Virus record (IMG/VR): IMGVR_UViG_3300031718_000177
Length of the DNA: 64,000 nucleotides
Direction: 5' to 3' (one strand)
Source: a virus
Lineage: Duplodnaviria; Heunggongvirae; Uroviricota; Caudoviricetes
Shown: one piece after another, positions 1 to 63,564 of the stretch
Position numbering within the stretch: position 1 is the first letter of the stretch
Layout: each line of letters begins with the position of its first letter
Program-made: the position numbers and the translations under genes
Notes under the pieces: generated by a model
The model's database searches: none
Seen by the model: the letters and a program-made list of their open reading frames with translations, nothing else
What the model was told of the DNA's origin: nothing

Positions 1-74
1 CACATATCCACGTTCGATATGTGTTGCCGTTCCTATCCGCCATCTTCTTTCCAACGGCTTGTTTAGTACAGTTT

Positions 75-437
75 TTATTTCAAATAGACCGGGCCGTGAG
101 CGGTCATGTAGTTCGCTGTTGTTTCGGGCTCGTAGATATTACCTCTAGCGTGCTTCGCCGGTGCTCGCCACGTCGCTGGCTTAAATACGTCGCCAGTAGC
201 AATCTCGACAAAGGCATAGATACGGCTATGCCGCTCTTGGTCCTTTTTCTCGTCATTGACCCAAATCACACAATAGCGACTGCCCATGTTCCCTCGGACA
301 ATGATAGGGATAGGGACGTGCGTATACTGTTGTTTTTCCCAATACTTCCGCATAATCTCCTGGCACTGGACAATCCAGGCGTCCAGGGCGACGAGGAAAC
401 CGGGTGTAATCTTGGCTTGTGTAGTTCGGAAGGACAT
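75..437 (-). CDS. Phage hypothetical protein (YAFVEIATGDVFKPATWRAPAK motif)
   Basis: ORF with RBS; motif recalls a widespread phage family. Confidence 0.75.
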   Translation of the reverse strand: MSFRTTQAKITPGFLVALDAWIVQCQEIMRKYWEKQQYTHVPIPIIVRGNMGSRYCVIWVNDEKKDQERHSRIYAFVEIATGDVFKPATWRAPAKHARGNIYEPETTANYMTAHGPVYLK

Positions 438-458
438 TTTTCGTTTCCCTTGATTGGC

Positions 459-950
459 TTAGTACAGGTTATGGGGCTTGCTGCCTTTACCTGCCTTCTC
501 GGCGAGATGCCTTAATTCCATCCGGCTAACGGCTTTACTGACCCTTCGCGACGGGTTGACTAGGTAGAACGTCCCGCCCGTTTGTCCCGCCGCCTGAAAC
601 GTGTAGGTCTTTGGGAATGTAATCAACCAGTCCGTCCCGCATTCTAGGCGGCGGGGCGTGTTAAAGGCAATGTCCTCGGCAACGTCGCGGGGAATACCGC
701 AAACTTGTAGCAATTGAATGAGACCGTGGGGACCACTGCCCTTGTAGCCCCATAAGACACTGTTAAAGCGTGCAGTACCGTTCAGCCCTTTGACTAGTAC
801 ACCTTCACGGACTACGGTTCCGCCGCCATAACCTTTGAGCTTCGCCCTATACCGTCGTCCTTCGATACTGAGAAGGCGTCCCAGGCGAGCGATATGCTCA
901 AACTTGAGAATAGTGTGCTGCGTGTCTCTTGCGTAGCGATATCGAATCAT
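459..950 (-). CDS. Hypothetical protein
   Basis: ORF tiles on minus strand; ends CTG TAC TAA. Confidence 0.7.
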   Translation of the reverse strand: MIRYRYARDTQHTILKFEHIARLGRLLSIEGRRYRAKLKGYGGGTVVREGVLVKGLNGTARFNSVLWGYKGSGPHGLIQLLQVCGIPRDVAEDIAFNTPRRLECGTDWLITFPKTYTFQAAGQTGGTFYLVNPSRRVSKAVSRMELRHLAEKAGKGSKPHNLY

Positions 951-1082
951 TTTTAGTTGTCCAGTAACTCGGCGGCTAGAAAGCCGATCAAAATAGCTAG
1001 AGCACCTGCGATAATGTATGCCACGCCTTAAAATCCCCTCCGCTCCCTAGTATTGGCTTCCACATGCCCCGTTTGCCGCTTT

Positions 1083-1265
1083 TTACAGTACAGCTTTCTT
1101 GTCGTTCTCTGCTATCTCCTTAAACATCGCTTTCGCCATCTGACGGGCTTCCCTCTTGTTGTCGGCGAAGATATTGACTTCTTTGTAATAGTACCCGATG
1201 CCAACGCAATAGAGCCGCTTGGAGAATACATAAGCACCCTGGAAAGTCTTACGGACGAATCGCAT
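1083..1265 (-). CDS. Hypothetical protein
   Basis: Tiling ORF. Confidence 0.6.
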   Translation of the reverse strand: MRFVRKTFQGAYVFSKRLYCVGIGYYYKEVNIFADNKREARQMAKAMFKEIAENDKKAVL

Positions 1266-1268
1266 TTG

Positions 1269-1410
1269 CTACCCTTTCGGCGTTGTATCGTGTGTGTAGC
1301 CAACTTGCTTATAGGCAAGGGCGATAATCCAACATTCTTCCAGCGTCCCGGTGTATACGCCGTAGTGTTGATAGCCATTTGTGGTAACAAACAGCGTATA
1401 TTTTGTTCAT
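1269..1410 (-). pseudogene. Small ORF interrupted by an apparent 1-nt insertion (MNKYTLFVTTNGYQHYGVY...)
   Basis: GGAAA RBS + ATG; 142 nt = 47 codons + 1. Confidence 0.4.
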
Positions 1411-1526
1411 GGCGATTTCCTACAGTACAGAGAAAATTGGCTAGATAGCGTCGCTTTTGCACGACTACGCACCATGATGGAATTATCGTAGGCGGTCCAG
1501 TGATTCGCTATCTAGCCAGTGTATCC

Positions 1527-1667
1527 TTACGTCTGGACAGTGATACACAGGTCGGGGATGCCAAAGGTATGAATTGCGTTCCCCATTGCTTCGTCGTAAG
1601 TCGCACCATATACACAACCCAGAAAACGATGCGTGCTAATGCGAAAAACATTCCATTTTCTTTCCAC
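1527..1667 (-). CDS. 46-aa hypothetical protein (not in ORF track)
   Basis: AGGAG RBS 7 nt before GTG; MERKWNVFRISTHRFLGCVYG... Confidence 0.6.
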   Translation of the reverse strand: MERKWNVFRISTHRFLGCVYGATYDEAMGNAIHTFGIPDLCITVQT

Positions 1668-1696
1668 TGTGTAGCTCCTGTTTATGTGCGGGTTGA

Positions 1697-1860
1697 GGAT
1701 TTAGCTAGGTTTTAAGGGGCTTTTAGCTATGTTTTATTGGGGATTTAGCTAGATTTAGGGGAAGGGGGGCTGGGAACTACCTTATTCCCTTTCCCCTACT
1801 TTTACCCCTTTTGTCTCACTTGTTGCCCCTTGTTCCTTATCGTTTGCCCCGTTTTCGCCT
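1697..1860. repeat. Phased repeat arrays flanking a G/C-rich palindrome (iteron/operator-like)
   Basis: TTTAGCTA at 1700, 1722, 1744; TTRCCCC at 1802, 1823, 1844; inverted repeat 1756-1766/1787-1798. Confidence 0.75.
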
Positions 1861-3812: not shown

Positions 3813-4073
3813 TCTGTTTCCTTCGCTTCACCTTAGTACAGCTTTGTAATCGGCGGTCGTGCCTAACTAGCGATAAGTGGCCACTATCGCTAATCCCGTT
3901 ACACTAAACCCCGGACTTGCCGACGTTGTAGGATGGTTAGTTCCTACTCTAACCGCTTTATTCGCTTTTTGTTCTTTCCTTTTGTTCCGGCTCCTCGACG
4001 GTGTTACTTCACAAATCGCAATTTATGCCCATGCTTGGCGAAGATAGCACGCATTCGACTTTTGATATTGTTG

Positions 4074-4321: not shown

Positions 4322-4966
4322 TTATATAGTACAGAGCTTAATAAACATTTCCTCGCGTGTCATCCCTTTAGGGAATCGACCGGAAGGCGTGCAGGGAATT
4401 GGCTTATCCGTGATTAGGTTGCCCTCTTTGTCTTTATGCTGGACTGTGAACGGGCAAGGGATAGTGCCATTGAAAATGTTTCGTTCATACTTGGCAAGGT
4501 CGGGGTTTGTATAGGGCGGTCGCTGACGGTTAGCGGGGCTTTTCATAGTCCCTAGCGGGAAGGTAATGAGAGTATCGGGGGGAAGGTATTTGTATTCTGT
4601 TCTGCGTCTGTATTTCCTCTTCTCGTCATACCCCCATGTCTCAAACTCGCAAGCAATACCCTGTTCGGTAGGTTCTTCGCCTATCTTTCGGTAAGTCGTC
4701 CCCTCATAGACGAATTGGGTATAATAGGCAAGCGACTTTAGCTCAAACTCCCACCATTTACGGTTTGTGGGTATTCCTAACTTGGTGGATGTGCCTTGCG
4801 GTCGCTCGTCGTGTATTGCTCCGCACTTACATTGCCACAGTAAGGGAGCAACCTTGACCATTCTTATTAAGCCGTTGCACCGCCCACAATACGGACAATA
4901 GCTAGGGTCTTTAGCTGCATTTATTCGGATTTGTTCGCTCATTGCTATTCCATAATCGCGAGACAA
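4322..4966 (-). CDS. Hypothetical protein with N-terminal Cys zinc ribbon
   Basis: CPYCGRC...WQCKCG. Confidence 0.7.
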   Translation of the reverse strand: MSRDYGIAMSEQIRINAAKDPSYCPYCGRCNGLIRMVKVAPLLWQCKCGAIHDERPQGTSTKLGIPTNRKWWEFELKSLAYYTQFVYEGTTYRKIGEEPTEQGIACEFETWGYDEKRKYRRRTEYKYLPPDTLITFPLGTMKSPANRQRPPYTNPDLAKYERNIFNGTIPCPFTVQHKDKEGNLITDKPIPCTPSGRFPKGMTREEMFIKLCTI

Positions 4967-5511: not shown

Positions 5512-5512
5512 C

Positions 5513-6134: not shown

Positions 6135-6584
6135 TTAGTTTGGGTAATTACCCTCTCGGATATGACGCCGTATGTTCTTTCTTACTTGGTCAAGGTGTTT
6201 CTTGTTCCAACCGCTCGGTACGTTCGGATCACAGGGCGGCAGGTCAATACCCCAATAGCCGATGGTAATGCCTCGGGGAGTGAAGGCGGTAATTTGGCCG
6301 CCATACCAAGCAACGAAATAGCTATTTTTGGTGTCAATCTCGACGATAAGGGCATCTTTAAGTTGCTCGGCAAGAGTCTCTAGATTCAATGCCAAGCACA
6401 TATCGACGATGGTTTGAGTCTTACGGGTTTGTTTGTTCATGTTTTCCCTTAGTACAGGCGTTAGTTTCTTCCCCAAAACATAGATAGCTTTGTTCGTCTT
6501 CGCTTGCTGGGATTGGAGCAATGCCTCCCCTACTATCCTCGCCAGATGTGGGTCTAGGGATATCTTAACCGGGTTCTTGCTCAT
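6135..6584 (-). CDS. Hypothetical protein (possible internal start at 6440)
   Basis: CTGTACT-AAGGGAAAAC-ATG at 6440. Confidence 0.65.
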   Translation of the reverse strand: MSKNPVKISLDPHLARIVGEALLQSQQAKTNKAIYVLGKKLTPVLRENMNKQTRKTQTIVDMCLALNLETLAEQLKDALIVEIDTKNSYFVAWYGGQITAFTPRGITIGYWGIDLPPCDPNVPSGWNKKHLDQVRKNIRRHIREGNYPN

Positions 6585-6887
6585 TCATGGGTTTCCCTTA
6601 GTACAGGCTAGTCGCATAAGCAACTCGCCATAAATTCTAGTAAGGACAAACTTGACCGCAAGTGGCTCTTTGTTGAAGTGCTCCGGTGTATTACCCAGGT
6701 GCCCGTAGATGGTAATTGCCTCATCTTCAGTGATTGCCGACCCCATATAAGCCGATTTCAACATTTGAAACCGCCTGAAGTCGGCGTCACACATATCTAG
6801 GTCTTTGCTGTGTAGCTCGACTTGTTCCTTGGGAAGCCCATCTACTTTAGATTGGACTTTGGCGATGGCAAGAGTGATGCGATTCAT
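6585..6887 (-). CDS. Hypothetical protein
   Basis: CTGTACT-AGGAATAACC-ATG. Confidence 0.75.
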   Translation of the reverse strand: MNRITLAIAKVQSKVDGLPKEQVELHSKDLDMCDADFRRFQMLKSAYMGSAITEDEAITIYGHLGNTPEHFNKEPLAVKFVLTRIYGELLMRLACTKGNP

Positions 6888-6965
6888 GGTTATTCCTAGT
6901 ACAGCGTGACGTGGGAATCAGGCATTTCCCTTTTCCCTAAAAGCGTCGCCCTGTTATTTCAAGGG

Positions 6966-8087: not shown

Positions 8088-8445
8088 TTGCTTCCCGTAG
8101 TACAGTAAGCCTCTGGTTCGCACGGTCGATTGCTGCTAATCTCTCTTTGGTGTAATCTTCCCCGTAGCAAGTAACATACCATTGATTGCTATTCCAGAAC
8201 TTGCCACCAAAACCTAGCGAACCTTGGAAACGGTATTCAACACATCCCCCTTGTTCTTGAGCCACTACAAAGAAGATGCGGTTGTGTTCGCCAGCCCCGC
8301 ATTCTTCTACCAGGATATCATATATCTTGTTAGCAGTATCGGAGTCGATAGCTTCCGCTCGCCGTCGTCGCTTGGTTTCTTCCGCCACTGATTCCCTTAC
8401 CTTTGCTTGTTCGGGAGTAGCTTTTTCGCCGGCTGGATTAGTCAT
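8068..8445 (-). CDS. Conserved phage hypothetical (EYRFQGSLGFGGKFW)
   Basis: Recognisable family motif. Confidence 0.8.
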   Translation of the reverse strand: MTNPAGEKATPEQAKVRESVAEETKRRRRAEAIDSDTANKIYDILVEECGAGEHNRIFFVVAQEQGGCVEYRFQGSLGFGGKFWNSNQWYVTCYGEDYTKERLAAIDRANQRLTVLREANANYGG

Positions 8446-10409: not shown

Positions 10410-10439
10410 GGTTAGTTCTTTCGGAAGCAAAAGTACAGA

Positions 10440-10590
10440 GGTAGGATTTCCACAGTCGCGAGCCGTTTCTGTTTCTTTTTAAGAGGCTATAACCTAACGG
10501 ACATTGCGTATCTGTGCAGGAGCAACAAGATGCCTACCACAAGCTTCCGTTGATTAGACCCCTCTCCTGCCTCTGTTTGCGGAAACTACC
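10440..10590 (-). ncRNA. Candidate structured RNA with possible pseudoknot
   Basis: Nested pairings GTAGG..TTTCCGC/GTGGAAA..CCTAC, AGAGG/CCTCT, GCAGGAG/CTCCTGC; crossing AACGGA/TCCGTT. Confidence 0.45.
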
Positions 10591-11220: not shown

Positions 11221-11263
11221 TTGTCGCTCCTTTTTTAGTTAGATGGACGCGGTTTAGTACAGT

Positions 11264-12275: not shown

Positions 12276-12300
12276 TGTCGGATAGTACAGATTTAGAGGA

Positions 12301-12920: not shown

Positions 12921-12954
12921 TGGTTTGCTTAGTACAGGTTAGCGGATCGGTGCA

Positions 12955-13314: not shown

Positions 13315-13730
13315 TATGAGTGAGAAGGGCTTGTTTCGGGCAGGATTGCGTTTGCCGCTTGTTCCAGGGCAGTTAGTACAGCGATAAGGAAGCGACCATC
13401 AAGTTGCCGATATTCTCTGCCAATGGCTAGATGGCAAAGAGTATCACAACCGTCCAGAGCATTATCGTAGTAAACAGTTATCCGATAATCAAAATCTAGC
13501 TCTTCGTCTGGTTCGGTGATAACGATCCTCCGTCCGTGGTCAATTTCCTTTATCCAACAAGGGTCATCCAGAAACGAAAGGATTTGCCCTCTGGGATTAC
13601 CATCACGGTATCCGAGTTGTTCTAATTGGTCGTTGAGTCTCATGGTTTCTTCCGGCACAACACATGCCAGCAGTATGATACCTAGGTCATGCGATCTTGC
13701 GGAGCGGACGCCATTCGACGGCATGGGCAT
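13311..13730 (-). CDS. Hypothetical protein
   Basis: Tiling ORF. Confidence 0.7.
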   Translation of the reverse strand: MPMPSNGVRSARSHDLGIILLACVVPEETMRLNDQLEQLGYRDGNPRGQILSFLDDPCWIKEIDHGRRIVITEPDEELDFDYRITVYYDNALDGCDTLCHLAIGREYRQLDGRFLIAVLTALEQAANAILPETSPSHSY

Positions 13731-14582: not shown

Positions 14583-14848
14583 GGTGTTTCTTCAGTACAG
14601 ACATCGACAACGCGGCAGCGAAAGATATCATACGCTTGGCCTCGGTCCCCTTCAAGAATCACCAAAGGGCCGAAACTGGTATTACATACCCTTAAAACCT
14701 TACCTTTATGCGAGTATGTTTTCCAGTCGTCAAAGGTAATCTCAACGGTTTTACCGACCAGAGGATGCGTGTATTGATTTGGGTATAACTGCCGGTGAGT
14801 AAGAGGGGCGGGGCGAATTGCAGGGGGAATGTAGTATTCGGTAGTCAT
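14570..14848 (-). CDS. SH3-like small protein
   Basis: LVGKTVEITF...KGKVLRV...LVIL. Confidence 0.6.
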   Translation of the reverse strand: MTTEYYIPPAIRPAPLTHRQLYPNQYTHPLVGKTVEITFDDWKTYSHKGKVLRVCNTSFGPLVILEGDRGQAYDIFRCRVVDVCTEETPCKS

Positions 14849-15554: not shown

Positions 15555-15571
15555 GATTCCTCCTAGTACAG

Positions 15572-16756: not shown

Positions 16757-17084
16757 TCAAAGAGCAACAGCAATAGGTTTCAACTTTGCCCACAAGCTAT
16801 CGGCGAAGTCGTAAACTTGACTACGCAGACAACCTTGCCACACATCACTCCCGTCGATTTTCGCAGAGAATACCTTGTAAAACCTCACATCCACCTTATG
16901 CCCGTTATACTCAAACGTCAGATGATGGAAGTCTTGTCGTTGGTCGTAGTACAGTCCAAACTCAGTAACTTTAGTAGTCCGATGAAGGTAGTTCGGCTAA
17001 GAACCGCAATTCATCGAACCGCCATTCGGTGAAGTATTGGCCTTTGGTATTGCCGATAGTGTAGTTGAGATTGCTCGATTCCAT
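16757..17084 (-). pseudogene. ORF split by an apparent +1 frameshift near 16970
   Basis: MESSNL...SDY* followed by start-less frame KVTEFGLYYDQRQDF...; 328 nt = 109 codons + 1. Confidence 0.45.
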
Positions 17085-17106
17085 TGTTATTCCCGAAGAG
17101 TACAGT

Positions 17107-17454: not shown

Positions 17455-17709
17455 TTACTTTTCCTTTGTTTCAGCTAGTACAGCCGGCCCGTAGCACGGA
17501 GCGATTAAATAGGGTTGTCCACGGTCGAGGACGCCGTTATACTCATAGAGCTTACCCGCAACTGCCAAGCCAACAATAGGGAATGATTCGCCATTCACCG
17601 CATCACAGAGCATGACATTAGTAGCACGTTGTTCATTCGTCATTGCGTTGATAGCACACGAAAGCTCGTTCCAATCCATAGGTATTTGTTCCACTTCGGC
17701 TTTCGCCAT
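17455..17709 (-). CDS. Hypothetical protein (start reassigned)
   Basis: MAKAEVEQ; follows stop at 17711. Confidence 0.6.
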   Translation of the reverse strand: MAKAEVEQIPMDWNELSCAINAMTNEQRATNVMLCDAVNGESFPIVGLAVAGKLYEYNGVLDRGQPYLIAPCYGPAVLAETKEK

Positions 17710-20473: not shown

Positions 20474-20489
20474 GGCTTCGGTAGTACAG

Positions 20490-41322: not shown

Positions 41323-41360
41323 CGCTTCCTCCGTGATGTGAAAGTACAGCTACGGAGCAA

Positions 41361-42826: not shown

Positions 42827-42852
42827 CTGGCATTCCGCACCTTTAGTACAGC

Positions 42853-43390: not shown

Positions 43391-43428
43391 TTCTCTACAC
43401 CAGTGTTTCCGTTTTTTACAGTACAGTT

Positions 43429-43862: not shown

Positions 43863-43905
43863 GTTTTCCTTTCATTCCCTTAGTACAGCCCCACCGTCGT
43901 TTCCG

Positions 43906-46101: not shown

Positions 46102-46490
46102 TTGAAACCAAAAACTACGACCAATTCTTTCATCGTGAATGGGGCATGTGTAGGAAGATCATTAAGCATTTTAAGTGCTTCAACCTCTGTCTCATATTCT
46201 TTAACTACACTCATATCATCATTGTCATTTACGCGAATTGCAAATGTGTTTTCCCATTCTACCAGATACGCCCAGAAATAGTCACCCGGCAAGCCGTTCC
46301 AATTAGGGTACGTCGGTATCAGTACAGTTTCGCGAGTCGGCCCGCTACTTTTAAGATTGTTGTCGCTCCGGTGTCCCTTGGCTTTGGACCACGTTAAACC
46401 AGTTATCCAGTTACGAAATCGTTCCCCCTCTGGGTAATCTTTAACATAATCATCGAAAGAATAGTAGGTTTTAGGAGTCATTCTAGCCAA
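46092..46490 (-). CDS. Hypothetical protein
   Basis: Tiling ORF. Confidence 0.7.
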   Translation of the reverse strand: MARMTPKTYYSFDDYVKDYPEGERFRNWITGLTWSKAKGHRSDNNLKSSGPTRETVLIPTYPNWNGLPGDYFWAYLVEWENTFAIRVNDNDDMSVVKEYETEVEALKMLNDLPTHAPFTMKELVVVFGFKWD

Positions 46491-46806
46491 TCATCATTCG
46501 ATGTATAACCCACATTATAGTGAGCCCTACCCAAGCAATTATTAGATTAGTTAAAGAAAGGGCAAGCGATATGACACCGAGCTTTTCCGTATCCACACAT
46601 TTCTGACACCATGCACATAATGCGGCTGTAACAATTACAGGAACGATAAAGAATACAAAAATGGAATAAGTCAGCCCTAATGCGTGCCAATAAGTTATTG
46701 GCGGAACGCTGAGTGGTACGAGAAACCATAGCCAAGCGTATTGGAAAGCGAAAGCCGTAGAAAATAAAGCGGCTATGCTCATTACCGATGTGAAAAAGGA
46801 TTTCAT
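46483..46806 (-). CDS. Multi-TM membrane protein (WFLVP...ITYWHALGL)
   Basis: Paralogous to 44971-45300. Confidence 0.7.
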   Translation of the reverse strand: MKSFFTSVMSIAALFSTAFAFQYAWLWFLVPLSVPPITYWHALGLTYSIFVFFIVPVIVTAALCAWCQKCVDTEKLGVISLALSLTNLIIAWVGLTIMWVIHRMMIG

Positions 46807-47162
46807 TTGTCTTCAACCAATTCAAGGTTTAATGTGATTTCCTTACAATCATATCGCCCAATCTTGAAAGACACATACCTATCGTCCATATAACCCATAA
46901 CGCTTGAAACACGTTTCCGGCCTGTCCATCTGTATCCCTCTGGAAAACCAGGAGGATTCTTATGGACTACTACTTTGTGCGTAGCATATCGTGGATGTTT
47001 ATCCCCTTCATCTATAGCTGCTGGTTTGTTTGTCCAGATAATCAACTGGTGTTTATCATTGGTAAAGTCGTTGTATGTAACCCAGGGCAATTTAAGATCC
47101 CCGTTCGGGTTTACGACTTGCATAATGCAGATCATCGAAAAATCCAGGCACGAAACGAACAT
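46803..47162 (-). CDS. Hypothetical protein
   Basis: Tiling ORF. Confidence 0.6.
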   Translation of the reverse strand: MFVSCLDFSMICIMQVVNPNGDLKLPWVTYNDFTNDKHQLIIWTNKPAAIDEGDKHPRYATHKVVVHKNPPGFPEGYRWTGRKRVSSVMGYMDDRYVSFKIGRYDCKEITLNLELVEDK

Positions 47163-47173
47163 CGTATGTTTCG

Positions 47174-47467
47174 CTATTCATTGTTTTGCTCCATAACAAC
47201 AAGGCATCGTCGAGCTTCTACGATGGAATCATCTTCAAGAAAAGTAAAAGCCGGAATATTAAGTAGCTCGTGTGTAACTACTGCCTTTACTGTATTGACT
47301 CTTGAGCCGGACTTAAAGGGCTTATTGCTAGATTTATACACCTTTTTGCCAATGAAAGACGATAGTACACTGAAATCCCATTCTCCATCGTCTTTGGTAA
47401 AGGGCTTCCTATACGATAGACTTTTCGTGAGCCGTTCCTCAAAACATCGCTGCTTTGTCTTAGTCAT
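47174..47467 (-). CDS. Conserved phage hypothetical (GKKVYK.S.KPFKSG...NTV)
   Basis: Recognisable family motif. Confidence 0.75.
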   Translation of the reverse strand: MTKTKQRCFEERLTKSLSYRKPFTKDDGEWDFSVLSSFIGKKVYKSSNKPFKSGSRVNTVKAVVTHELLNIPAFTFLEDDSIVEARRCLVVMEQNNE

Positions 47468-47500
47468 CGTTATCTCTGAATCTCTCCGACCGTATTCATT

Positions 47501-47773
47501 TTACTTATTAACGGAGGTCGCTTGATGACCTCCGCTACCCAAGTCAACAACCACAGCGACGATAATAAGCACCATCCAACTACCATCTACATGATGGTTA
47601 TTACAGAGCATTGTCGCCATATAGGCGAGTGTTGTATATGGCATGAATAAGAAACCTAAGACTGGCCAGATAATCGTGTGGTATGCTTGTGAGAACCAGT
47701 TGGTAAGTAAAAAGATAAAGAACATAACAAGTCGTGGCACGAAAATGCTAACAAGTGGCAACAAGCAGCCCAT
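47501..47773 (-). CDS. Conserved small membrane protein (MGCLL...PRL...LGFLFMPYTTLAY)
   Basis: AGGAG RBS before ATG 47773. Confidence 0.8.
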   Translation of the reverse strand: MGCLLPLVSIFVPRLVMFFIFLLTNWFSQAYHTIIWPVLGFLFMPYTTLAYMATMLCNNHHVDGSWMVLIIVAVVVDLGSGGHQATSVNK

Positions 47774-48692: not shown

Positions 48693-48775
48693 TTTACAAA
48701 CTTTCTAGTTGAAAGAGAAAAACCGGCTTCTTTAATCGGGGTGAATGGCTTTTCGTCAGACAGTACAGGCGACTT

Positions 48776-49282
48776 TCATGGTTGTATTTCCGACAGAGGT
48801 TTTCCAAGGACTTTCGCAATTTGTTCTGGCGACTTTTTTTCTTGTGTAAGACAATCTACTATGATTTTAATACACTTAGGGCAAGTAACCCTTTTTTCGT
48901 CCTCAACACAATCGCCTTCTTTGTCTCCGCACGCCGAATAGCCACCAATCAATCCGGCTGAGTTGATGTGAATCTTTTCCTCTTTATACTCCACAGTAGG
49001 ACATTCTGGTGGAATTACAAACGCATCAAACCTATCACCCAGTCCATCTAAATGTAGTGTAGTTTTACGTTTCAATAACGCCATAGCAAATGAATGATTC
49101 TCAAAGCCAAGCGGTATTGCCGCACCATTTAGTACAGCAACATCACGCGGCTTCGCATGAGCATCAACATCCCAACAGCCCTTCTCTTTAATACATCCAG
49201 ATGATTTTCCGCATTGACATTTTCTTACTTTAAGTTGTAATTTAAGAACGTCATTACAATGAGGGCAGAAGAGGAGTTTCAC
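48776..49282 (-). CDS. Zinc-binding phage hypothetical (MKLLFCPHC...CQCG)
   Basis: Recognisable family motif. Confidence 0.75.
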   Translation of the reverse strand: MKLLFCPHCNDVLKLQLKVRKCQCGKSSGCIKEKGCWDVDAHAKPRDVAVLNGAAIPLGFENHSFAMALLKRKTTLHLDGLGDRFDAFVIPPECPTVEYKEEKIHINSAGLIGGYSACGDKEGDCVEDEKRVTCPKCIKIIVDCLTQEKKSPEQIAKVLGKPLSEIQP

Positions 49283-50100
49283 GGTTTATCCAATTCAGCT
49301 TCTAACTTTTTGTCTCTTTTGCCACCAACAAATATACCACATTCTTCATCATCGTTATCATCACTCTTGGGTTTCTGCTGCGATAGTTTTTCACTCATAT
49401 AATCTTGTAAATCTTCCTCCAAAACTAGAATTGTGCTCTGAAATACTTTATCTAGGGCCTCTAAGTGGTCTGCTAAATCCTCCCTAAGTGCATCGAACTT
49501 ATTTGTAATATATTCTTCTATATCAGGTGTCATTTTCCTTACTTTCTTTTTGGATATAGCAGTTTTTGATTTTGGTTTGGATTTCTTTATTGTTGGTTCG
49601 GACTTCTCCCACGGGTAGCGCCACCATCTAACATTATTCTTATCTTTAGTTAGATTGCTTAGATAGTTCTCTCGTTGACGACCACTATTACGGTAATCAG
49701 GATGATAATGGACTACATAAGCGGTTTTATCATCCTTAAATGAGGTAATCTTATATCTACCGCCCCCTTCGGTTCCGTAAACGACATCCCCTATTGCAAA
49801 TGTTTCGCCTCTATAATTTGCGTATTCATCCCACGTCGGCTGCCTAGTCGTTAAATCGTCTAACTTTATTAACCAGCCATCCGTACCTCTTGTGAGATTG
49901 TCTGCACGAGCAACAATTGCTTGTTTTTTTCTCTGCCCAAACGAGCGGATTTTATATCGGTGGCGGTTGTGTAGACCATAAACAATATCGCCTACTCGAA
50001 ATGTTTCGCCCCTACGATTTGTACACCTTAGTACAGTGTATTCCTCTACAGAGGATTTCCCCTTCCCGAATATTTTGTCCCAGTTACTTCTATAAGACAT
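49279..50100 (-). CDS. Protein with two tandem SH3-like RGETFxxGDxVYG repeats and coiled-coil tail
   Basis: Internal duplication seen in translation. Confidence 0.75.
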   Translation of the reverse strand: MSYRSNWDKIFGKGKSSVEEYTVLRCTNRRGETFRVGDIVYGLHNRHRYKIRSFGQRKKQAIVARADNLTRGTDGWLIKLDDLTTRQPTWDEYANYRGETFAIGDVVYGTEGGGRYKITSFKDDKTAYVVHYHPDYRNSGRQRENYLSNLTKDKNNVRWWRYPWEKSEPTIKKSKPKSKTAISKKKVRKMTPDIEEYITNKFDALREDLADHLEALDKVFQSTILVLEEDLQDYMSEKLSQQKPKSDDNDDEECGIFVGGKRDKKLEAELDKP

Positions 50101-51375: not shown

Positions 51376-51623
51376 CCTTCAATGGCCTTCTTTGTCGGTA
51401 TTTCATGGTGTTCGGGCATCCCCGCTGTAACTCGTAACGGCCTAGGTGCTCGCGCTTTCCAAGCAACCTTGGGCTGACTGCTTTCTATAAGTACAGAACT
51501 ATCGCGTCCCTCAATATTCTCGGCCTCTGCTTGACCACCACGTACTTTAAGCATAATGGTTTTGTTTAGATGCTCTGGGTGATTAGACGCCCAAGCAACT
51601 AGGTCAGCAAGAGTGAGAAACAT
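51339..51623 (-). CDS. Hypothetical protein
   Basis: Tiling ORF. Confidence 0.6.
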   Translation of the reverse strand: MFLTLADLVAWASNHPEHLNKTIMLKVRGGQAEAENIEGRDSSVLIESSQPKVAWKARAPRPLRVTAGMPEHHEIPTKKAIEGWDIPLLPRKEL

Positions 51624-53429: not shown

Positions 53430-53501
53430 GACTAGCACTCCAAACAAAGGGAAAAACCGAACGAATCTGAACCGTACAACACAGTACAGTCCTTGTTTCC
53501 G

Positions 53502-53861
53502 TTAATCGGCAAAGGAAAAGTAGTCGGGCGACTCAGGCCCGCCACTATCCCATTCAGGCTTAGTACAGTTTTCAATAGCGTCGGCAACTTTTTGTGTTTC
53601 TTTCGGGAAAAGCATTTCAGCAAGTACATCCAAGGTCAACTTTCGGTCGTCGTCGTCTAACTTTTCGCCATCACACTCGCCGGTCGCAATCTGGCGAAGT
53701 AACAAGATAGCGTCTGGCTTCAATGCTTCTTCTAGGTTTATGAAAGCGACTACAACTTTTGCTGAATTGTTGATAAGTTTCAGTAGGTTATGTTGTTTCT
53801 CCATAATAATTGCGATCAGCCCTTCATCCGTGTATTTCATGTTGTTCGTTTCGTTGCCCAT
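53502..53861 (-). CDS. Hypothetical protein
   Basis: Tiling ORF. Confidence 0.7.
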   Translation of the reverse strand: MGNETNNMKYTDEGLIAIIMEKQHNLLKLINNSAKVVVAFINLEEALKPDAILLLRQIATGECDGEKLDDDDRKLTLDVLAEMLFPKETQKVADAIENCTKPEWDSGGPESPDYFSFAD

Positions 53862-54107
53862 GTCTTTATCTTACGGCAGACGCCTGCCAATTTCAAGTGA
53901 AAACTTCCGATTTTCGGTCACTTTCCGTAAGTGTAAGTCATAAGCGAGTTTAAGCCACCAAGACAACCGATCACAAAGAGCACCCCTACCACAATTATCA
54001 GGAGAAGGATCAATTCGGTCACGATCAACTCCACCACCTTTTTCCAATCTGCCATCGCTTGATTTCTTCTGGTGATTCTCCGCATTTACGCTTCTCTTAG
54101 TACAGTT

Positions 54108-54537: not shown

Positions 54538-55002
54538 CTACTTGGTTACATGTAAATCAACGTTGTCGGCATCAATCTTCATGCCGGTGTCTTTTAACTC
54601 AATAGTATGTAAACAAACCATATTATCGGTATTACGATTCTTAAAAGTAAGAAGTTTCTCCCAACCGTTCTTGGTGAGTATCTTCTGTTGTGGCGTATTC
54701 TTTTCTACATCAGTACAGAGTAAGATGGTATAAAGCGAATCCCATGCTATCTGCTGCCGCATCTTGTTAAGTAGGTTGCCTAACCCTCTTTTGCGGTATT
54801 CATCAAATACATAAGCGTAAAAAGAGACACAAATACCGCAACAACCGGGTAGTTGCTGTAAGTTAAAATGAGCTACGCACGGCTGTATAGCTTCTTTTAA
54901 TGCATCTATAGAGTAGAAAGTTGACCCTGCGAGTGTTTTTTTGCGTTTTATAGAAACAGGTTTGTCTACTATTCGAGCAATCTCGTCCATGTAGGTAGTC
55001 AT
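54538..55002 (-). CDS. GNAT-family N-acetyltransferase
   Basis: AYVFDEYRKRGLGNLL motif A; NTPQQKILTKNGW motif B. Confidence 0.85.
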   Translation of the reverse strand: MTTYMDEIARIVDKPVSIKRKKTLAGSTFYSIDALKEAIQPCVAHFNLQQLPGCCGICVSFYAYVFDEYRKRGLGNLLNKMRQQIAWDSLYTILLCTDVEKNTPQQKILTKNGWEKLLTFKNRNTDNMVCLHTIELKDTGMKIDADNVDLHVTK

Positions 55003-55686: not shown

Positions 55687-56163
55687 TTACCGAGTTTCAT
55701 TTTTCTTCTCCACCAACTTCGTCACATCCACACGCCATTTGTTTTTTACGAAATGTGCCGTAAACTTCCGATATAATGGATGGATAGGATTACTACTATC
55801 GTTTCCAGGCACTTCAGGTAGATTATATTGCCTTCTGATTTCTTCTAGTTCCTTTTTCCCTTCTGCGGTGTCTAATGAATATTTCTTCCTTAATTCTTCC
55901 CGCGACAATCCGGTATAAGGTGCAGGTTCTAATTCTAGCGTGGGAAGACCATTGATGGTGACGGGATAATAACCTCTAAGTACAGTTACGGGCATAAGTA
56001 AATCGTACTTTGGATCAAAGATATTTGGCACAAAGAAATACGCTCTATCTCCAACGTCCAGTTTTCCTTTTCCCGCTTCCGGCAACCCTTCCTTGAAATT
56101 ACTTGATGGACCGGGATAGGAACTAAAACTACTTAAATAGAGGGTGCTGTAAGTAGTATTCAT
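55687..56163 (-). CDS. Hypothetical protein
   Basis: Tiling ORF. Confidence 0.7.
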   Translation of the reverse strand: MNTTYSTLYLSSFSSYPGPSSNFKEGLPEAGKGKLDVGDRAYFFVPNIFDPKYDLLMPVTVLRGYYPVTINGLPTLELEPAPYTGLSREELRKKYSLDTAEGKKELEEIRRQYNLPEVPGNDSSNPIHPLYRKFTAHFVKNKWRVDVTKLVEKKNETR

Positions 56164-58914: not shown

Positions 58915-59148
58915 TCATGTGTCTCGCCTTTTCAGGGACCAAGGAAAAGCATCGCCATCAAACGATATCTGAACTACTTCTAGTCCATGTGGTTTCAATA
59001 TATCGTCTAGTTTTTTGAGGAAATCACCACCCAAGCCACTATCACTATTTGCTCGTTCCATAGTTTTCCAGTCCCAAAAGAAAACCTTGTTGGACAAAGC
59101 AAAATCACCGTAAATGGCTTCTGCTTCTCGCTCTGGCATCGTTCGCAT
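58915..59148 (-). CDS. Hypothetical protein
   Basis: Tiling ORF. Confidence 0.65.
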   Translation of the reverse strand: MRTMPEREAEAIYGDFALSNKVFFWDWKTMERANSDSGLGGDFLKKLDDILKPHGLEVVQISFDGDAFPWSLKRRDT

Positions 59149-59944
59149 TGTTCTTCCTTTGAGTTGAGAGGGAATACCTTTGACTTCGCAGAAGAGAAGC
59201 TCTAATTTTGCTTTTTACTTCCTCAGTACAGGGCCGTCCTTCCTCGCCATCTACATTTAATATTGCTTTTAATTTCCGAATGCCCTTGAACCACCATTGT
59301 CTTGCCATTTCTCTTGAGACAATACGATAACCATTATATTTTCGCTTAAACTTAGCTATATTTCCCAATTTGATACCCAGTAATCTACCTCGTATAGCAA
59401 ATCGCTCGTTGCGAGTCAAGTTAAGACGTATAAGTTCCCATATCCAAATGTTATCCTTGATAGGGTCGGGGTTACGATATAACGCCTTACATCGCGTGTT
59501 GTCGGTGATCTCCTCTGTTCCGTTGAGGGCAGCTTCATATTGAGCGGCGAAGGCAGGAGTTTTTTTAGAACTTGGCAATCTAACTATATGCTCGCGGAGG
59601 TAACTTCGAGCAAAAGCAGCCCTAACTTGCCAACTCACGAATGTTGTCAGTCGTCCCCTTTTTGGATTAAACTTGTGCATATTTTCTACGATATATAAAT
59701 TGAGAATGCCAACCTTATCATTAAGAGACGCATAGCTATGAGTGTTACGCTTAGCCAGATAAACTAGGAATGGCAATACTGCTTCTACAAGTTTGTTTCT
59801 TGCATTGATACGTGCTTTCTTCGTTTTACATTTCATCATCTTCTTATGCAGTTTTATCTCCTCCTCCTTCGACAAAAATACACAACTCCCTAGATCGCGG
59901 AGGTAAGTGGCTTCTATGTTAGCTAGATCGGCAGATTTCTGCAT
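59105..59944 (-). CDS. Sigma70-family RNA polymerase sigma factor (regions 1.2, 2, 4)
   Basis: YLRDLG..FLSKEEE (1.2); ARNKLVEAVL...KFNPKRGRLTTFVSWQVR (2); LTRNER...VSREMARQ...GIRKL (4). Confidence 0.85.
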   Translation of the reverse strand: MQKSADLANIEATYLRDLGSCVFLSKEEEIKLHKKMMKCKTKKARINARNKLVEAVLPFLVYLAKRNTHSYASLNDKVGILNLYIVENMHKFNPKRGRLTTFVSWQVRAAFARSYLREHIVRLPSSKKTPAFAAQYEAALNGTEEITDNTRCKALYRNPDPIKDNIWIWELIRLNLTRNERFAIRGRLLGIKLGNIAKFKRKYNGYRIVSREMARQWWFKGIRKLKAILNVDGEEGRPCTEEVKSKIRASLLRSQRYSLSTQRKNNANDARARSRSHLR

Positions 59945-59949: not shown

Positions 59950-60519
59950 CTAACTAATGGCTTCGTTGATTGCACCACGAATTGCCCAAAACGTGACTTC
60001 TCCAAACCGATCAATTACTTCAGCTTTTCGATCCACAAATACAGAGAATAAGCCGTTAGCATAGTTGAAATATTTCACGGCATACTTGCTGTCGCCAGCG
60101 GTAAAGAAGTCCTTAACATTGGTCAGCCTGTCGATAACCTTGGCGACAACTGCTTCTATGCTTTTAGTCGCAAAACCATCTATATGTTGTTGTTTGGCTT
60201 CCCGATAGCCATCAACCGATTCGTTTGTGTCGCGATTGCGAAATGTAAGTTCGCATACAAGATCGGCAACTGAATCGCCGAATATGTCGAGGATATCTTG
60301 TCGAGTTTTACTGCAATCCTCGATTGTGTCGTGCAAAAGCAATGCAACCAAAAAGTTCTCGTCGCTGCCCTTATTGATCCTAGCGTTATATGCCATTTGC
60401 ATAACGGCAAAGGGGTGGACAATATAAGGCAGTTTAATTTCACCACCAGATTTGCGGTCTTTGCCATAGTGAGCAGTAACCGCAAACTGAATTGCAAGAT
60501 GTAGTTTTTCTCCTAGCAT
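59950..60519 (-). CDS. HD-domain hydrolase, RelA/SpoT (Mesh1/small alarmone hydrolase)-like
   Basis: AH.G..RK...PYIVHP...ALLLHDTIEDC...AKVIDRLTN. Confidence 0.9.
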   Translation of the reverse strand: MLGEKLHLAIQFAVTAHYGKDRKSGGEIKLPYIVHPFAVMQMAYNARINKGSDENFLVALLLHDTIEDCSKTRQDILDIFGDSVADLVCELTFRNRDTNESVDGYREAKQQHIDGFATKSIEAVVAKVIDRLTNVKDFFTAGDSKYAVKYFNYANGLFSVFVDRKAEVIDRFGEVTFWAIRGAINEAIS

Positions 60520-61640: not shown

Positions 61641-61896
61641 TGTTGCATCCTTCTGTGCCGTGTTCATCTGGTTGGACATACCTAATACGCAGGCCAGCTT
61701 TGGCTATATCTTTTAATGCGGAAGCGATTGCGTCCTCTCGCGATTCTGCCTTACGGTCAAATGTTAGAAAAGGCCGAGAATCAAACATGCCCAATAGAGC
61801 GTCGCTACAACCGGCCTCGAAAACCTTATTCTCAATTTCCTCTGTAATCTCCGGTAAATCTTTGAGCCAAATAGTGAAAACGTAGGTCTTCATCAC
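61618..61896 (-). CDS. Conserved hypothetical with HicB-like N-terminal pattern (EAGCSDALLG...LTFDRKAESREDAI)
   Basis: Recognisable family motif. Confidence 0.7.
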   Translation of the reverse strand: MMKTYVFTIWLKDLPEITEEIENKVFEAGCSDALLGMFDSRPFLTFDRKAESREDAIASALKDIAKAGLRIRYVQPDEHGTEGCNNGSCCCL

Positions 61897-62006
61897 TTAA
61901 CCTTTTGCAGTCCTTCCAACTTTTGGATTAGCTCTTCCGGCCCAACGTATGTGTTCCCATTATCTTCCCAGCCGGTGATCGTGTATAGAATCGTTTCATC
62001 GCTCAC
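61893..62006 (-). CDS. 37-aa ORF whose start lies in a 20-nt duplication
   Basis: GTG overlapping upstream TGA; MSDETILYTITGWEDNG... Confidence 0.5.
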   Translation of the reverse strand: MSDETILYTITGWEDNGNTYVGPEELIQKLEGLQKVK

Positions 62007-62026
62007 AGAATCGTTTCATCGCTCAC
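61987..62026. repeat. Perfect 20-nt tandem duplication
   Basis: agaatcgtttcatcgctcac x2. Confidence 0.9.
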
Positions 62027-62200
62027 TGTCGTTCGAACATCATATGTCTTCTGAAACGACTCCAACAATTTGACGCCTTCTGGACCGTAAATCTCTTTGG
62101 TTAATCTTTCAGCGAGAGTCCAATAAACAATTGGTACTCCACAACTCATAAATGGACACATACCTTTCAGAACTTCGTGTAGAATCTCTTTCGTCTGCAT
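62003..62200 (-). CDS. Hypothetical protein
   Basis: Tiling ORF. Confidence 0.6.
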   Translation of the reverse strand: MQTKEILHEVLKGMCPFMSCGVPIVYWTLAERLTKEIYGPEGVKLLESFQKTYDVRTTVSDETIL

Positions 62201-62448
62201 TACTTAACCTTTTGCTTGAAGATCCTATTTGCGGTTCTGGTGGATATGTTGATGTAACTTTTGCCGTCTCTAGCGATCCATACTCCCAACTTATTATCGT
62301 AGTCACATATATCCAAAGAACAACACCCGAATTTTTCCTTCTTGTCCTTTGGATGAAATACCAAGCCCGTACCATCTATGCCCTCTGCTACAAGATAAGC
62401 GTCGAGAATAGTTCCCTCTTCTTCCAAACCAAAATCGGTAGTTACCAT
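62200..62448 (-). CDS. Hypothetical protein
   Basis: Tiling ORF. Confidence 0.65.
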   Translation of the reverse strand: MVTTDFGLEEEGTILDAYLVAEGIDGTGLVFHPKDKKEKFGCCSLDICDYDNKLGVWIARDGKSYINISTRTANRIFKQKVK

Positions 62449-62452
62449 GTAT

Positions 62453-62758
62453 TTAATTTTTTTTATATGTTATACGCCGATATGCTGCTAGTTGACTTTC
62501 GTAGTCCATATCCAAGTTGTAGATTTCCATAACCTGATACGCATTATACGCACTGCCCTGTTCTTTCTTAAACCCCTCGATAAACTTATGTACATCTTTG
62601 CCTCTTGGACAATAGATGGGGAAATCACCCGATATGACTACCATATGGGAGTTATTTACGCTATCGGCGTATTTAAGCCACCGTCGAATATCTGCTTTTG
62701 ATGCTACTGCCATTCTTCGTCCCTTTCTAAGTAGAACATCACGTTTGGCTCTGAGCAT
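62453..62758 (-). CDS. Hypothetical protein (true start probably MAVASK)
   Basis: Tiling ORF. Confidence 0.65.
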   Translation of the reverse strand: MLRAKRDVLLRKGRRMAVASKADIRRWLKYADSVNNSHMVVISGDFPIYCPRGKDVHKFIEGFKKEQGSAYNAYQVMEIYNLDMDYESQLAAYRRITYKKN

Positions 62759-63029
62759 TAGCCCATTTTTGGTAGATATTGACTGCTCGCGAGTTTTGCA
62801 TAAAAGCTCTTAAATCATTTTCGCTTGCAAATGTTAAAGTAGCTTGTGCCTTGATGTGAAGATATTCTGGCTTAGTTAAGATATCTCTTAGGTCAATATG
62901 GGTGCGTTCCCATGTAAATGGTCGTTGCAATTCTTTTAGTTCTTTAATACAAGGTTCAAGCGACGATTCGGCGAGAAAGTGAAGTTTCAACTGGTTCATG
63001 TTATCACTATCGCATGAGCAGCCAGGCAA
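62739..63029 (-). CDS. Hypothetical protein
   Basis: Tiling ORF. Confidence 0.6.
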   Translation of the reverse strand: MPGCSCDSDNMNQLKLHFLAESSLEPCIKELKELQRPFTWERTHIDLRDILTKPEYLHIKAQATLTFASENDLRAFMQNSRAVNIYQKWANAQSQT

Positions 63030-63136
63030 CTAACATACCGATCGTAAAGATTAAAGGTATCCAATCAAAGTATATCTTGCCATCCCATTTCATCTTCGTC
63101 TTCCATTAGTTGAATCAGAACCGACTTCTGCTATTT

Positions 63137-63364
63137 TTACCCAACCTTTGTAGAGTAAGACAATGGGCCAAAATATGTTGAGCATAAAAGCTCAATTCGA
63201 GCACTTTCGGGCAAACCGCCGGTTTTGTAATTATGATAATAACTATTTGCCATGTAACGACCAATAGTAAGGAAACCAACACCATAAATGGCGATGTAGG
63301 TCCAGTAGTTTGTTGCTAAGTCACGAAGAGAGAAAGACAAATGGAGAAGATTATCGAGATTCAT
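63137..63364 (-). CDS. Small membrane protein
   Basis: TM segment YWTYIAIYGVGFLTIG. Confidence 0.55.
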   Translation of the reverse strand: MNLDNLLHLSFSLRDLATNYWTYIAIYGVGFLTIGRYMANSYYHNYKTGGLPESARIELLCSTYFGPLSYSTKVG

Positions 63365-63564
63365 TTTTTGACCTTTTGCCGAGGAAACGGAAGGGACAGT
63401 ACAGCAGTAGAACCCCAGTCATAAGAAGGAGCCGATGATGATAACAATGAGAATTGCTAGAGCAACGACTCCGATTACAGTATCCGGTAGGTCGTCTGGA
63501 TTTTTTGTTGGCTTGTCTAGTAATTCGTCATTTTCATCAAGGCCGGTAATAATGTTAGGGTTCA

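Follow-up and report, generated by a model that had tools for sequence, protein, structure and literature searches.

The heptamer CTGTACT recurs throughout a 64,000-nt stretch (hereafter, the window) of the 293-kb genome of an uncultured soil phage, where it is under strong selection on the sense strand, clusters shortly before gene starts and occurs after terminators. From these sequence patterns we suggest, with a probability of about one half, that it is a phage-specific promoter or transcript-start signal that acts without a -35 partner and is read by phage machinery; the word itself would presumably recruit an RNA polymerase.

The + strand of the window contains 58 exact matches to AGTACAG, i.e., CTGTACT on the coding (-) strand, and the opposite strand contains none, against an expectation of about 3 per strand. 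This agrees with the one-strand count in the preliminary description of this DNA, of whose 58 coordinates 56 were right and two were one base off (the correct positions being 44513, not 44514, and 54712, not 54713). CTGTACT is the most frequent of all 7-mers on the coding strand; its expected number under Markov models of orders 0-3 is 2.7-3.3, which makes the excess 17- to 20-fold, and dinucleotide-preserving shuffles gave 5.7±2.2 copies with a maximum of 13, even with the two strands summed. The word was indeed spread over the whole region, as had been claimed, since bins of 8 kb hold 5-10 copies each, except for the 56-64 kb bin, where the deficit (just 2 copies) is non-significant after correction.

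The enrichment is not due to codon usage, and the copies are not a repeat element. Loss of the enrichment under codon shuffling had been named beforehand as an outcome that would speak against a signal; it survives, as the 32 in-gene copies compare with 6.5±2.2 in synonymous-codon shuffles (maximum 15 in 1000 shuffles), a 5-fold excess, while the 26 intergenic copies compare with 0.57 expected, a 46-fold excess. The proteins permit the word at 67 in-gene positions, and it is present at 31 of them. It was also correct that the word is read in all three frames and is often intergenic; the in-gene copies divide into 22 of xCT-GTA-CTx, 8 of xxC-TGT-ACT and 2 of CTG-TAC-T. The sequences flanking the copies are unrelated, and a repeat family exceeding about 30 nt was not found around them. 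Nothing similar to the word was found in IMG/VR loci or in one distant relative, nor was a related genome found. Survival under codon shuffling, the non-repeat nature of the copies and the lack of similar words in those comparisons together support a strand-polar cis signal that is under selection and specific to the present phage. That the word is instead a functionless by-product of composition, of codon-pair bias or of the spread of a small repeat element is hardly credible, being already contradicted by the Markov, codon-shuffle and flank results and, additionally, by the non-random placement relative to genes and terminators. What such a view can draw on is the variants differing in the first letter, ATGTACT, GTGTACT and TTGTACT (9, 9 and 10 copies, bearing out the recurring one-mismatch forms noted earlier; reverse complements, 0). 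These look incidental: most are in the Val-Leu frame, a purine is not favoured after them and, unlike CTGTACT, they are spread uniformly within genes.

Intergenic DNA makes up 18% of the window, yet holds 45% of the copies (26/58), all copies given here and below being on the - strand. Eight of these 26 lie 1-3 nt after the upstream stop codon (p=5e-7), namely 1 nt at 17099-17105 and at 11256-11262 (next start 35 nt on), 2 nt at 54099-54105, 43420-43426 and 25943-25949 (start 10 nt on), and 3 nt at 22163-22169, 21438-21444 and 65-71. Others precede a called start closely, as at 12284-12290 (8 nt), 12931-12937 and 6898-6904 (10 nt each), 43882-43888 (19 nt), 41343-41349 (20 nt, with GGAGG between), 10432-10438 (22 nt, after a structured 150-nt gap) and 34124-34130 (22 nt, in a 47-bp gap facing the sole plausible + strand ORF), or at a longer distance, as at 63398-63404 (33 nt), 53483-53489 (53 nt) and 48762-48768 (87 nt). 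The copy at 16948-16954 lies within a non-coding gap of 375 nt, and those at 23593-23599, 3835-3841 and 1087-1093 are likewise intergenic.

The in-gene copies are skewed towards gene ends: the final fifth of the gene holds 16 of the 32, the first fifth only 2 (p=1.4e-4). Copies in the final fifth of the preceding gene include 37038-37044 (next start 33 nt on), 26920-26926 and 2960-2966 (45 nt each), 38908-38914 (55 nt), 13375-13381 (75 nt) and 39726-39732; at the end of that gene are 8099-8105 (start 11 nt on), 6600-6606 (15 nt), 28237-28243 (20 nt), 17477-17483 (22 nt), 4328-4334 (35 nt) and 14594-14600. At 461-467 the trailing AA completes the stop of the gene at 459-950, and the next start is 23 nt on. 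The copy at 59225-59231 lies in the 3' part of a sigma-factor gene, 76 nt before the next start, and four more in-gene copies have a start within 100 nt, at 30329-30335 (65 nt), 26506-26512 (89 nt), 30944-30950 (91 nt) and 27933-27939 (96 nt). The remainder are at 55979-55985 (VL frame), 54712-54718 (CT frame), 53562-53568, 51490-51496, 50030-50036 (near the 5' end of a 273-aa gene), 49131-49137, 46321-46327, 44513-44519 (in a PDZ protein gene), 40374-40380, 38047-38053, 29326-29332 (LY frame) and 19831-19837, together with 40130-40136 and 6451-6457, described at the end.

Overall, a called start is at most 25 nt away for 26% of the copies, compared with 7% of random positions. ATG codons peak at 10-11, 13-14 and 20-23 nt downstream of the word, among them those of uncalled ORFs and one in-frame internal start; the distance to the next start shows a periodicity of about 11 nt, and a Shine-Dalgarno-like sequence begins 0-3 nt past the word. 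It is to be noted that for 42% of the copies the next called start is over 100 nt away, which weakens the promoter reading, and that, of the 29 genes preceded by a gap exceeding 120 nt, just 6 have the word within 120 nt upstream, so that the word is not simply a mark of the first gene after a gap.

The most ordered arrangement was seen at terminators. All four intergenic terminators on the coding strand consisting of a hairpin and a T-run have YTGTACT within 0-3 nt after them, followed by a Shine-Dalgarno-like sequence and then ATG. At 20483-20489 the word abuts a hairpin with T6 (start 9 nt on); at 42845-42851 it lies 1 nt after a hairpin with T5 and precedes AAGGTG and an ATG 11 nt downstream; at 1424-1430 it lies 2 nt after the terminator and precedes AGGA and an ATG 13 nt downstream; and at 20885-20891 the variant TTGTACT lies 3 nt past a hairpin of -16.5 kcal/mol with T4. 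A fifth case, at 15565-15571, reads T7-CTGTACT-AGGAGG-N4-ATG, the ATG being 10 nt downstream. In the tightest of these cassettes, the T-run leads to the word, the ribosome-binding site comes 0-3 nt later, and the ATG is at about 10 nt.

The functional word can be extended to (T)AAAA-CTGTACT-R, as the positions upstream are A-rich, the (T)AAAA prefix being weak, and a purine directly follows in 49 of the 58 copies (p=7e-7). A second upstream element resembling a -35 partner was sought near the copies and was not found, and neither was a palindrome. Everywhere outside the word, GTAC stands at 0.23 of expectation, a depletion of about 4-fold, and the reverse complement AGTACA does not occur on the sense strand; this may reflect avoidance of spurious sites. 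Because of the general GTAC depletion, the absence of CTGTACT from the + strand, which the preliminary description had stressed, stands as a count but is mildly surprising at most (p about 0.02-0.14 after correction).

In the promoter reading, the core would be CTGTACT with its weak prefix and the purine after it, a single element that acts alone and stands at the head of numerous short transcription units along an extended block of small genes, all on one strand. The transcript 5' end would lie at or beside the purine directly after the word, as in an initiator-type promoter, which fits the cassette geometry. A classical -10 element, with its start 6-8 nt downstream, fits less well; with a sigma-type -10 element, transcription of 10-16 genes would begin downstream of their ribosome-binding site. 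Precedents exist for single elements: gp36 of phiEco32 reads tAATGTAtA (PMC8948821), the early operons of jumbo phages are preceded by a single conserved motif, and in phiKZ late promoters the T-3ATG+1 motif overlaps the start (PMC7598289). The start proposed here resembles the last of these, as well as yeast mitochondrial promoters. One candidate reader is a divergent sigma-70-family factor (279 aa) encoded at 59105-59944 on the - strand, through which a -10-type reading would be possible; no relatives of known specificity were found for it. Thus, among the functions listed in the preliminary description, the evidence narrows the choice towards a gene-start-linked signal, i.e., a promoter or transcript 5' end, whereas translocation, entry or Chi-like signals, which ignore gene boundaries, are disfavoured by the placement of the copies.

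Since all genes here are on one strand, gene polarity and DNA-strand polarity of the word are indistinguishable, and a strand-specific signal in the DNA itself has to be weighed. Programmed nick sites are known in T5 and in phiKMV-like phages. In phage tf, all 14 TACT/RTGMC nick sites are in the top strand (PMC3517423), which is matched by the confinement of CTGTACT to one strand (58 vs 0), and TACT/R, formed by the 3' half of the word and the next base, matches the tf nick junction. The most concrete form of such a signal would be a programmed nick, with a phage enzyme reading CTGTACT/R in double-stranded DNA and acting on a single strand, primase or recombination hotspot signals being less likely forms. 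Spacing more even than random (CV 0.75-0.78; 2 gaps below 100 nt vs 10.6 expected) and the rarity of both near-cognate GTAC sites and the reverse complement would suit it, and in-gene copies far from starts would need no gene-level explanation. However, a signal of this kind should ignore gene polarity, in contrast to the skew of in-gene copies to the last fifth, the fixed spacing of intergenic copies ahead of start codons and their position right behind terminators. Most of the reverse-complement deficit is accounted for by the general GTAC depletion; the downstream TGMC half of the tf site is absent here; and the copies are about threefold denser than the sites of tf (0.9 vs 0.3 per kb), which would amount to roughly 260 nicks per genome by extrapolation from the window. 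We regard this explanation as unlikely, though not far-fetched.

Action at the RNA level appears quite unlikely. Here a sequence-specific endoribonuclease would cleave polycistronic transcripts at CUGUACU/R, and the cistrons downstream would be released with a short leader starting at the ribosome-binding site. The sense-strand polarity, the position between stop codon and ribosome-binding site, and the nearness of the Shine-Dalgarno-like sequence all agree with this, and genes of RNA-repair type are nearby (a 2H phosphoesterase gene within the window and an RNA ligase gene just outside it). Nonetheless, cleavage at copies within the 3' ends of preceding genes would cut those messages short of their stop codons, little read-through RNA would reach copies directly after strong terminators, an RNA signal would not be expected to deplete GTAC or the reverse complement on the sense strand, and a candidate nuclease was not found. 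Still less probable, in our judgement, is another same-strand expression signal, such as a sequence-specific site at which a phage polymerase terminates or pauses, a translation enhancer, or the operator of a phage regulator that binds RNA or DNA. Placement right after stops and terminators suits a 3'-end signal, but the 16 genes with the word in their last fifth would have their own messages aborted. A fixed distance from word to ATG suits a translational operator, but a translational element could not work at a distance of 30-100 nt or more upstream, nor at the 25 copies that lack a nearby ATG. With its period of about 11 nt, the distance to the next start hints at a face-of-the-helix relation, as with DNA-bound regulators, but neither the second site nor the palindrome of a dimeric regulator is present.

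Lastly, several copies precede ATG codons of uncalled or uncertain ORFs. An ATG follows at +13 nt at 54099-54105 (uncalled ORF of 55 codons), at +14 nt at 17099-17105 (uncalled, 37 codons) and at +11 nt at 14594-14600 (67 codons). The copy at 40130-40136 is just within a called gene and has an ATG at +7 nt that opens a 75-codon ORF and is possibly the true start. At 6451-6457, in the gene at 6135-6584, the word is followed by AAGGGAA and an in-frame ATG at +10 nt, a possible internal start.

An exact count over the 64-kb window returned 58 copies of AGTACAG on the + strand and none on the - strand. Since the public gene catalogue assigns all 163 genes called for the window to the - strand, the coding-strand form of the word is CTGTACT (copies are named here by their + strand start), and it is to be noted that the 58 to 0 split comes where the called genes all share that strand as well. 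The preliminary description had listed 58 copies on the + strand and none opposite, which is correct, except that two of its coordinates were one base off and should read 44513 and 54712. CTGTACT is the top-ranking 7-mer of the coding strand, where Markov models of orders 0-3 expect 2.7-3.3 copies, and the over-representation that had been claimed thus holds in Markov-corrected counts of the window; dinucleotide-preserving shuffles yielded 5.7±2.2 copies on both strands together, compared to the 58 seen. The density of the word is 0.9 per kb. Regional heterogeneity, suggested by 2 copies in the 56-64 kb segment against 5-10 elsewhere, was not significant after correction.

Codon usage was ruled out as the cause of the enrichment by synonymous-codon shuffles together with the intergenic excess. 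When synonymous codons were permuted within each gene, 6.5±2.2 in-gene copies were obtained (maximum 15 of 1000 permutations) against 32 in the actual sequence; the enrichment therefore persists under the codon-shuffled null that the preliminary description had named. Intergenic DNA, 11.6 kb in all, contains 26 copies where 0.57 are expected. Within genes, the peptide permits synonymous encoding of the word at just 67 positions, and 31 of these indeed use it. A dispersed repeat element of the REP or MITE kind was likewise rejected, since there was no similarity outside the core word: the flanks carry about 0 bits of information past ±5 nt, and repeat families are no longer than 22-46 nt, with 68-100% identity, the longest of those that include copies of the word being 24-29 nt (69-100% identity). 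The copies are therefore independent, and not duplicated cassettes.

The base directly 3' of the word is a purine in 49 of the 58 copies (p=7e-7), and the four bases 5' of it are A-rich with a T at -5, amounting to a weak TAAAA prefix, so that the full word is (T)AAAA-CTGTACT-R. The word itself is 7-8 nt long with 3 G/C letters. Its 6-mer core, TGTACT, occurs 86 times on the coding strand, preceded by C in 58 cases and by A, G and T in 9, 9 and 10, respectively, in agreement with the recurring one-mismatch variants noted previously. These 28 non-C variants, however, look largely incidental, being mostly in the Val-Leu frame, uniform along the genes, and without the purine preference at the next base. 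The word stands alone as a conserved element of the non-template strand: it lacks a -35 element, and no second upstream element was enriched among k-mers at any spacing between -50 and -1. Upstream RNA folding could not be told apart from that of random windows, and matches to the sigma-70 consensus promoter were no commoner in the window than in shuffles. Reading the word as an ECF-type -35 element, with CGTC or CGTA 16-17 nt after it, was rejected, as there was no conserved downstream box. Two intergenic copies, at 1070-1098 and 43403-43431, agree over about 25 nt at 85-88% identity, with the common context AAA-CTGTACT-GTAAAAA(A)CGG-AA; no called gene is close to either, and they may stand at the head of similar small transcripts.

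The polarity of the word has to be read against the tetranucleotide composition of the window. AGTACA, the reverse complement of the TGTACT core, has 0 copies on the coding strand of the window. Outside the word, GTAC is the second most depleted tetranucleotide, at 0.23 of expectation, after GCGC at 0.08; codon shuffles alone expect 8 AGTACA, and 2-4 once the 4-fold depletion of GTAC is taken into account (p about 0.02-0.14). Thus, the strand polarity claimed in the preliminary description stands as to the zero opposite-strand copies, but the argument built on the word never occurring on the other strand is weakened by this general depletion. GCGC is present in 13 copies against about 155 expected, and GATC (0.43) and ACGT (0.49) are also low; a shortage of this kind resembles avoidance of restriction sites, and may give a hint of the host's restriction systems.

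The placement of the word relative to genes is far from random. Intergenic DNA makes up 18% of the window and holds 26 of the 58 copies, and 26% of all copies, compared to 7% of random positions, fall within 25 nt before the next called start. The 32 in-gene copies are skewed towards the 3' ends of genes, with 16 in the final fifth and only 2 in the first (p=1.4e-4). In intergenic DNA, eight of the 26 copies start 1-3 nt past the upstream stop codon (p=5e-7), a placement that is partly due to the TAAAA prefix doubling as a stop. Downstream of the word, ATG peaks at 10-11, 13-14 and 20-23 nt, several being the first codons of uncalled ORFs (33-75 codons) or, with the copy at 6451, an in-frame internal start. 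Five such ORFs on the - strand, with the ATG 7-14 nt past the word, are absent from the calls or lie inside a longer called gene, starting at 54086 (55 codons), 14583 (67 codons), 40123 (75 codons), 17085 (37 codons) and 1411 (33 codons); each may be a small gene that the calls missed or a start that they set wrongly. At 6135-6606, a near-identical pair of CTGTACT-AAGGGAAA-ATG modules is found 149 nt apart, and since the second ATG is in frame within gene 6135-6584, this gene may yield two nested products. The copies stand in the sense orientation upstream of genes, yet for 42% of them the distance to a called start exceeds 100 nt, and the word lies within 120 nt upstream of only 6 of the 29 genes that follow gaps longer than 120 nt; these two figures speak against a simple rule that the word marks the first gene after a gap.

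Spacing between copies is somewhat more even than random (CV 0.75-0.78), with 2 gaps shorter than 100 nt against 10.6 expected. Word-to-start distances, taken to the next called start, show an unexpected periodicity of ~11 nt (R 0.55-0.69), with clusters at about 10, 21, 34, 45, 54, 65, 76 and 88 nt; tested against a jitter null, the full set of distances up to 100 nt and the 25-100 nt subset both gave p <=0.006, and the wider subsets (25-160 and 25-300 nt) gave p of about 0.04-0.06.

The closest arrangements are found behind terminators. The ribosome-binding site of the window's genes is purine-rich and located at -12 to -8, and in a tight class of copies it starts 0-3 nt past the word. At all four definable intergenic terminators, consisting of a hairpin and a T-run on the coding strand, a form of the word (CTGTACT in three, TTGTACT in one) follows 0-3 nt later, and is succeeded by the ribosome-binding site and ATG. 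A fifth cassette on the - strand, T7-CTGTACT-AGGAGG-N4-ATG, is found at the copy at 15565. In T4-type phages, PeSL cassettes, composed of a stem-loop terminator and then a promoter, bound small orphan ORFs, and the hairpin, T-run and CTGTACT in front of the next ORF resemble them. The promoter in a PeSL cassette, however, is an early one of the host sigma-70 type, with both a -35 and a -10 box, whereas sigma-70-like matches here are at shuffle level and the word bears no relation to the spacing rules of TATAAT.

Three features connect the word with expression of the gene downstream: the in-gene asymmetry, the fixed spacing to start codons and the cassettes of terminator, word and gene. A gene-blind process would not yield these patterns of placement; a polar word of the Chi or KOPS type was rejected for the same strong positional bias to stops, starts and terminators. 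The best reading of the word is a promoter. In that role, the copies in the 3' ends of upstream genes would cost those genes nothing, and expression of the genes directly behind terminators would be accounted for. Since the cassettes leave just 9-13 nt from word to ATG, occupied by the ribosome-binding site, it is suggested that the RNA would begin at or beside the purine 3' of the word. In a classical -10 version of the promoter, TGTACT would stand for TATAAT, and leaders of only 2-5 nt would be left in the tight class; the Shine-Dalgarno-like sequence 0-3 nt past the word in the terminator cassettes also argues against a start 6-9 bp downstream, making the -10-type reading less likely than an initiator-type start at the purine. 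Cleavage of the RNA at the word would suit a location between stop codon and ribosome-binding site, but such a processing site fits poorly with copies in coding 3' ends and directly behind terminators. By analogy, the word may also be regarded as a strand-specific nick site, for which there is a real precedent in phage tf, where a 9-bp nick consensus, TACT/RTGMC, occurs at 14 sites in 46 kb, all on one strand and across convergent gene sets (PMC3517423). The localized single-strand interruptions of tf, LUZ24-like, T5 and phiKMV-like phages have, like the word, all sites on one DNA strand, although the called genes here lie on one strand too; the TACT/R junction of tf and LUZ24-like phages is the same as that of the word and its next base. 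The 3' half of the tf consensus is missing, however, as no TGMC follows the R and the full TACTRTGMC is thus not found; moreover, a nick site does not predict the bias to gene boundaries that the word follows here, as seen in assembled contigs, in contrast to the strand of the tf sites, which is fixed across convergent genes. Overall, we tentatively place at about one in four the probability that the word is either an initiator-type promoter, starting at the purine 3' of CTGTACT and employing machinery new for a sigma-carrying phage, or a dense strand-specific nick or marking code coupled to gene boundaries. In the former case, the reader could be a phage RNA polymerase not yet recognised as such, or else a sigma factor whose element-to-start geometry is non-canonical; the latter would amount to about one mark per kb.

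Phage-specific promoter words are already known as a kind; CTGTACT is new in sequence and unusually dense, and its geometry is possibly unusual. The late promoters of T4 that depend on gp55 have a single element, TATAAATA, read by a phage-encoded sigma factor. The gp36 element of phiEco32, tAATGTAtA, is also a single element, with the start 6-8 bp downstream and about six promoters per genome (PMC8948821). Like gp36-type promoters, the word is one short, highly conserved sense-strand sequence upstream of phage genes that lacks a -35 partner and shares its genome with a phage sigma gene; furthermore, the two elements agree in their core, TGTA, and in being A-rich on the left. They differ in that there are 58 copies in 64 kb here against about six per genome, and in that the ribosome-binding site is often 0-3 nt past the word, so that a -10-type start would fall downstream of it. 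Early motifs of the jumbo phages phiKZ and AR9 are about 10 nt long, AT-rich and centred at -10, and the late promoter of phiKZ, T-3ATG+1, overlaps the transcription start (PMC7598289). As in jumbo phages, there is a large genome here and one computationally findable motif upstream of operons of small genes, and the start-site overlap of the phiKZ late element is the geometry suggested for the word. Promoters of yeast mitochondria have the same element-at-start geometry. The word, with its 7-8 nt and 3 G/C letters, is unlike the early motifs of phiKZ and AR9 and does not conform to virion-RNAP early promoters, and no genes for split beta/beta'-like RNA polymerase subunits were found in the window or in the gene lists for 10 kb on either side.

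The reader of the word could be encoded in the same genome, both the divergent sigma factor and an unrecognised polymerase being candidates. The sigma-70-family gene at 59105-59944 (-) has a match to Sigma70_r2 at 4e-6 and to RpoS structures at 1.7e-10; regions 1.2 and 2 of its product align with RpoS, and region 4 does so weakly. Judged from the alignment and sigma-70 numbering, several residues that contact the -10 element in sigma-70 appear to be replaced. In contrast to ECF factors, it is RpoS-like in region 2, with no characterised relatives. An exhaustive HMMER search of 1.8 billion cluster representatives retrieved no close relatives of the protein, the best other match (29% identical) being an enterobacterial RpoS adjoining nlpD, it did not turn up in IMG/VR, and a word-index search returned the sigma factor itself alone.

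If the word is a promoter, it would directly chart some 50-60 transcription units in a 64-kb block of orphan genes, flag uncalled small ORFs and internal starts, and represent a short orthogonal promoter whose reader could be sought in the same genome. It would then be useful for studying gene scheduling in huge phages that lack cultured hosts, and a compact promoter/factor pair might also come of it. Should the word prove instead to be a nick or another DNA-level code at gene boundaries, it would extend the unexplained localized nicks of phages to huge phages, at unprecedented density. Either the initiator promoter or the boundary-coupled nick code, if true, would mean that an orphan lineage of huge soil phages uses a new cis-regulatory grammar.

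Searches for relatives and precedents returned little. INPHARED contained no relatives of the window by DNA or protein, and the literature on CTGTACT with phage yielded only primers and unrelated uses. A homologue of the HD-domain neighbour of the sigma gene, 44% identical, lies on a MAG contig of 151 kb, but that locus showed no enrichment of CTGTACT and no comparable polar word. No dense polar copies were found among 299 IMG/VR loci, of which 232 were drawn with three motif-context 14-mers; the three best records had 1/6, 5/4 and 3/1 copies per strand. A giant-virus MAG contig in IMG/VR (L014:4428-6476) carries seven CTGTACT on one strand within 2 kb, which is probably a local repeat unrelated to the phage of the window. 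An exact 41-mer from the window end had no match among JGI metagenome contigs. No RNA runs were listed with the window sequence; a single soil DNA run, probably the source, contains it, and the contigs of this run cover the window at 12-15x depth with no variants and no informative ends. Against this local depth, a 39-nt assembly unitig at 10504-10542 has a depth of 31, and other contigs branch there; this short sequence, which lies in the structured gap by the copy at 10432, recurs elsewhere in the genome or sample.

The window belongs to a contig of 292,671 bp from a single soil metagenome (ENA analysis ERZ27256860, run SRR8558719), in which gene orientation stays constant for at least 10 kb past both window ends. 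Rfam and tRNA scans of the window gave no matches. Recognisable domains were a 2H phosphoesterase (27225-27836), an HD_4 domain resembling ppGpp hydrolases beside the sigma gene (59950-60519), a J-domain (32816-33178) and a PDZ domain (43906-44769), the small genes of the block being otherwise orphan. A tandem duplication in perfect register, with a 27-nt unit at 96% identity, lies at 31778-31831. Only two + strand ORFs appear in public gene calls. One of them, 46962-47525, looks like a false call, as its codon-usage score is non-coding-like and poorer than those of ORFs 46803-47162 and 47174-47467 on the - strand. The other, 34149-34853, may be a real opposite-strand gene, and has no CTGTACT on its own strand, although one gene is too small a sample.
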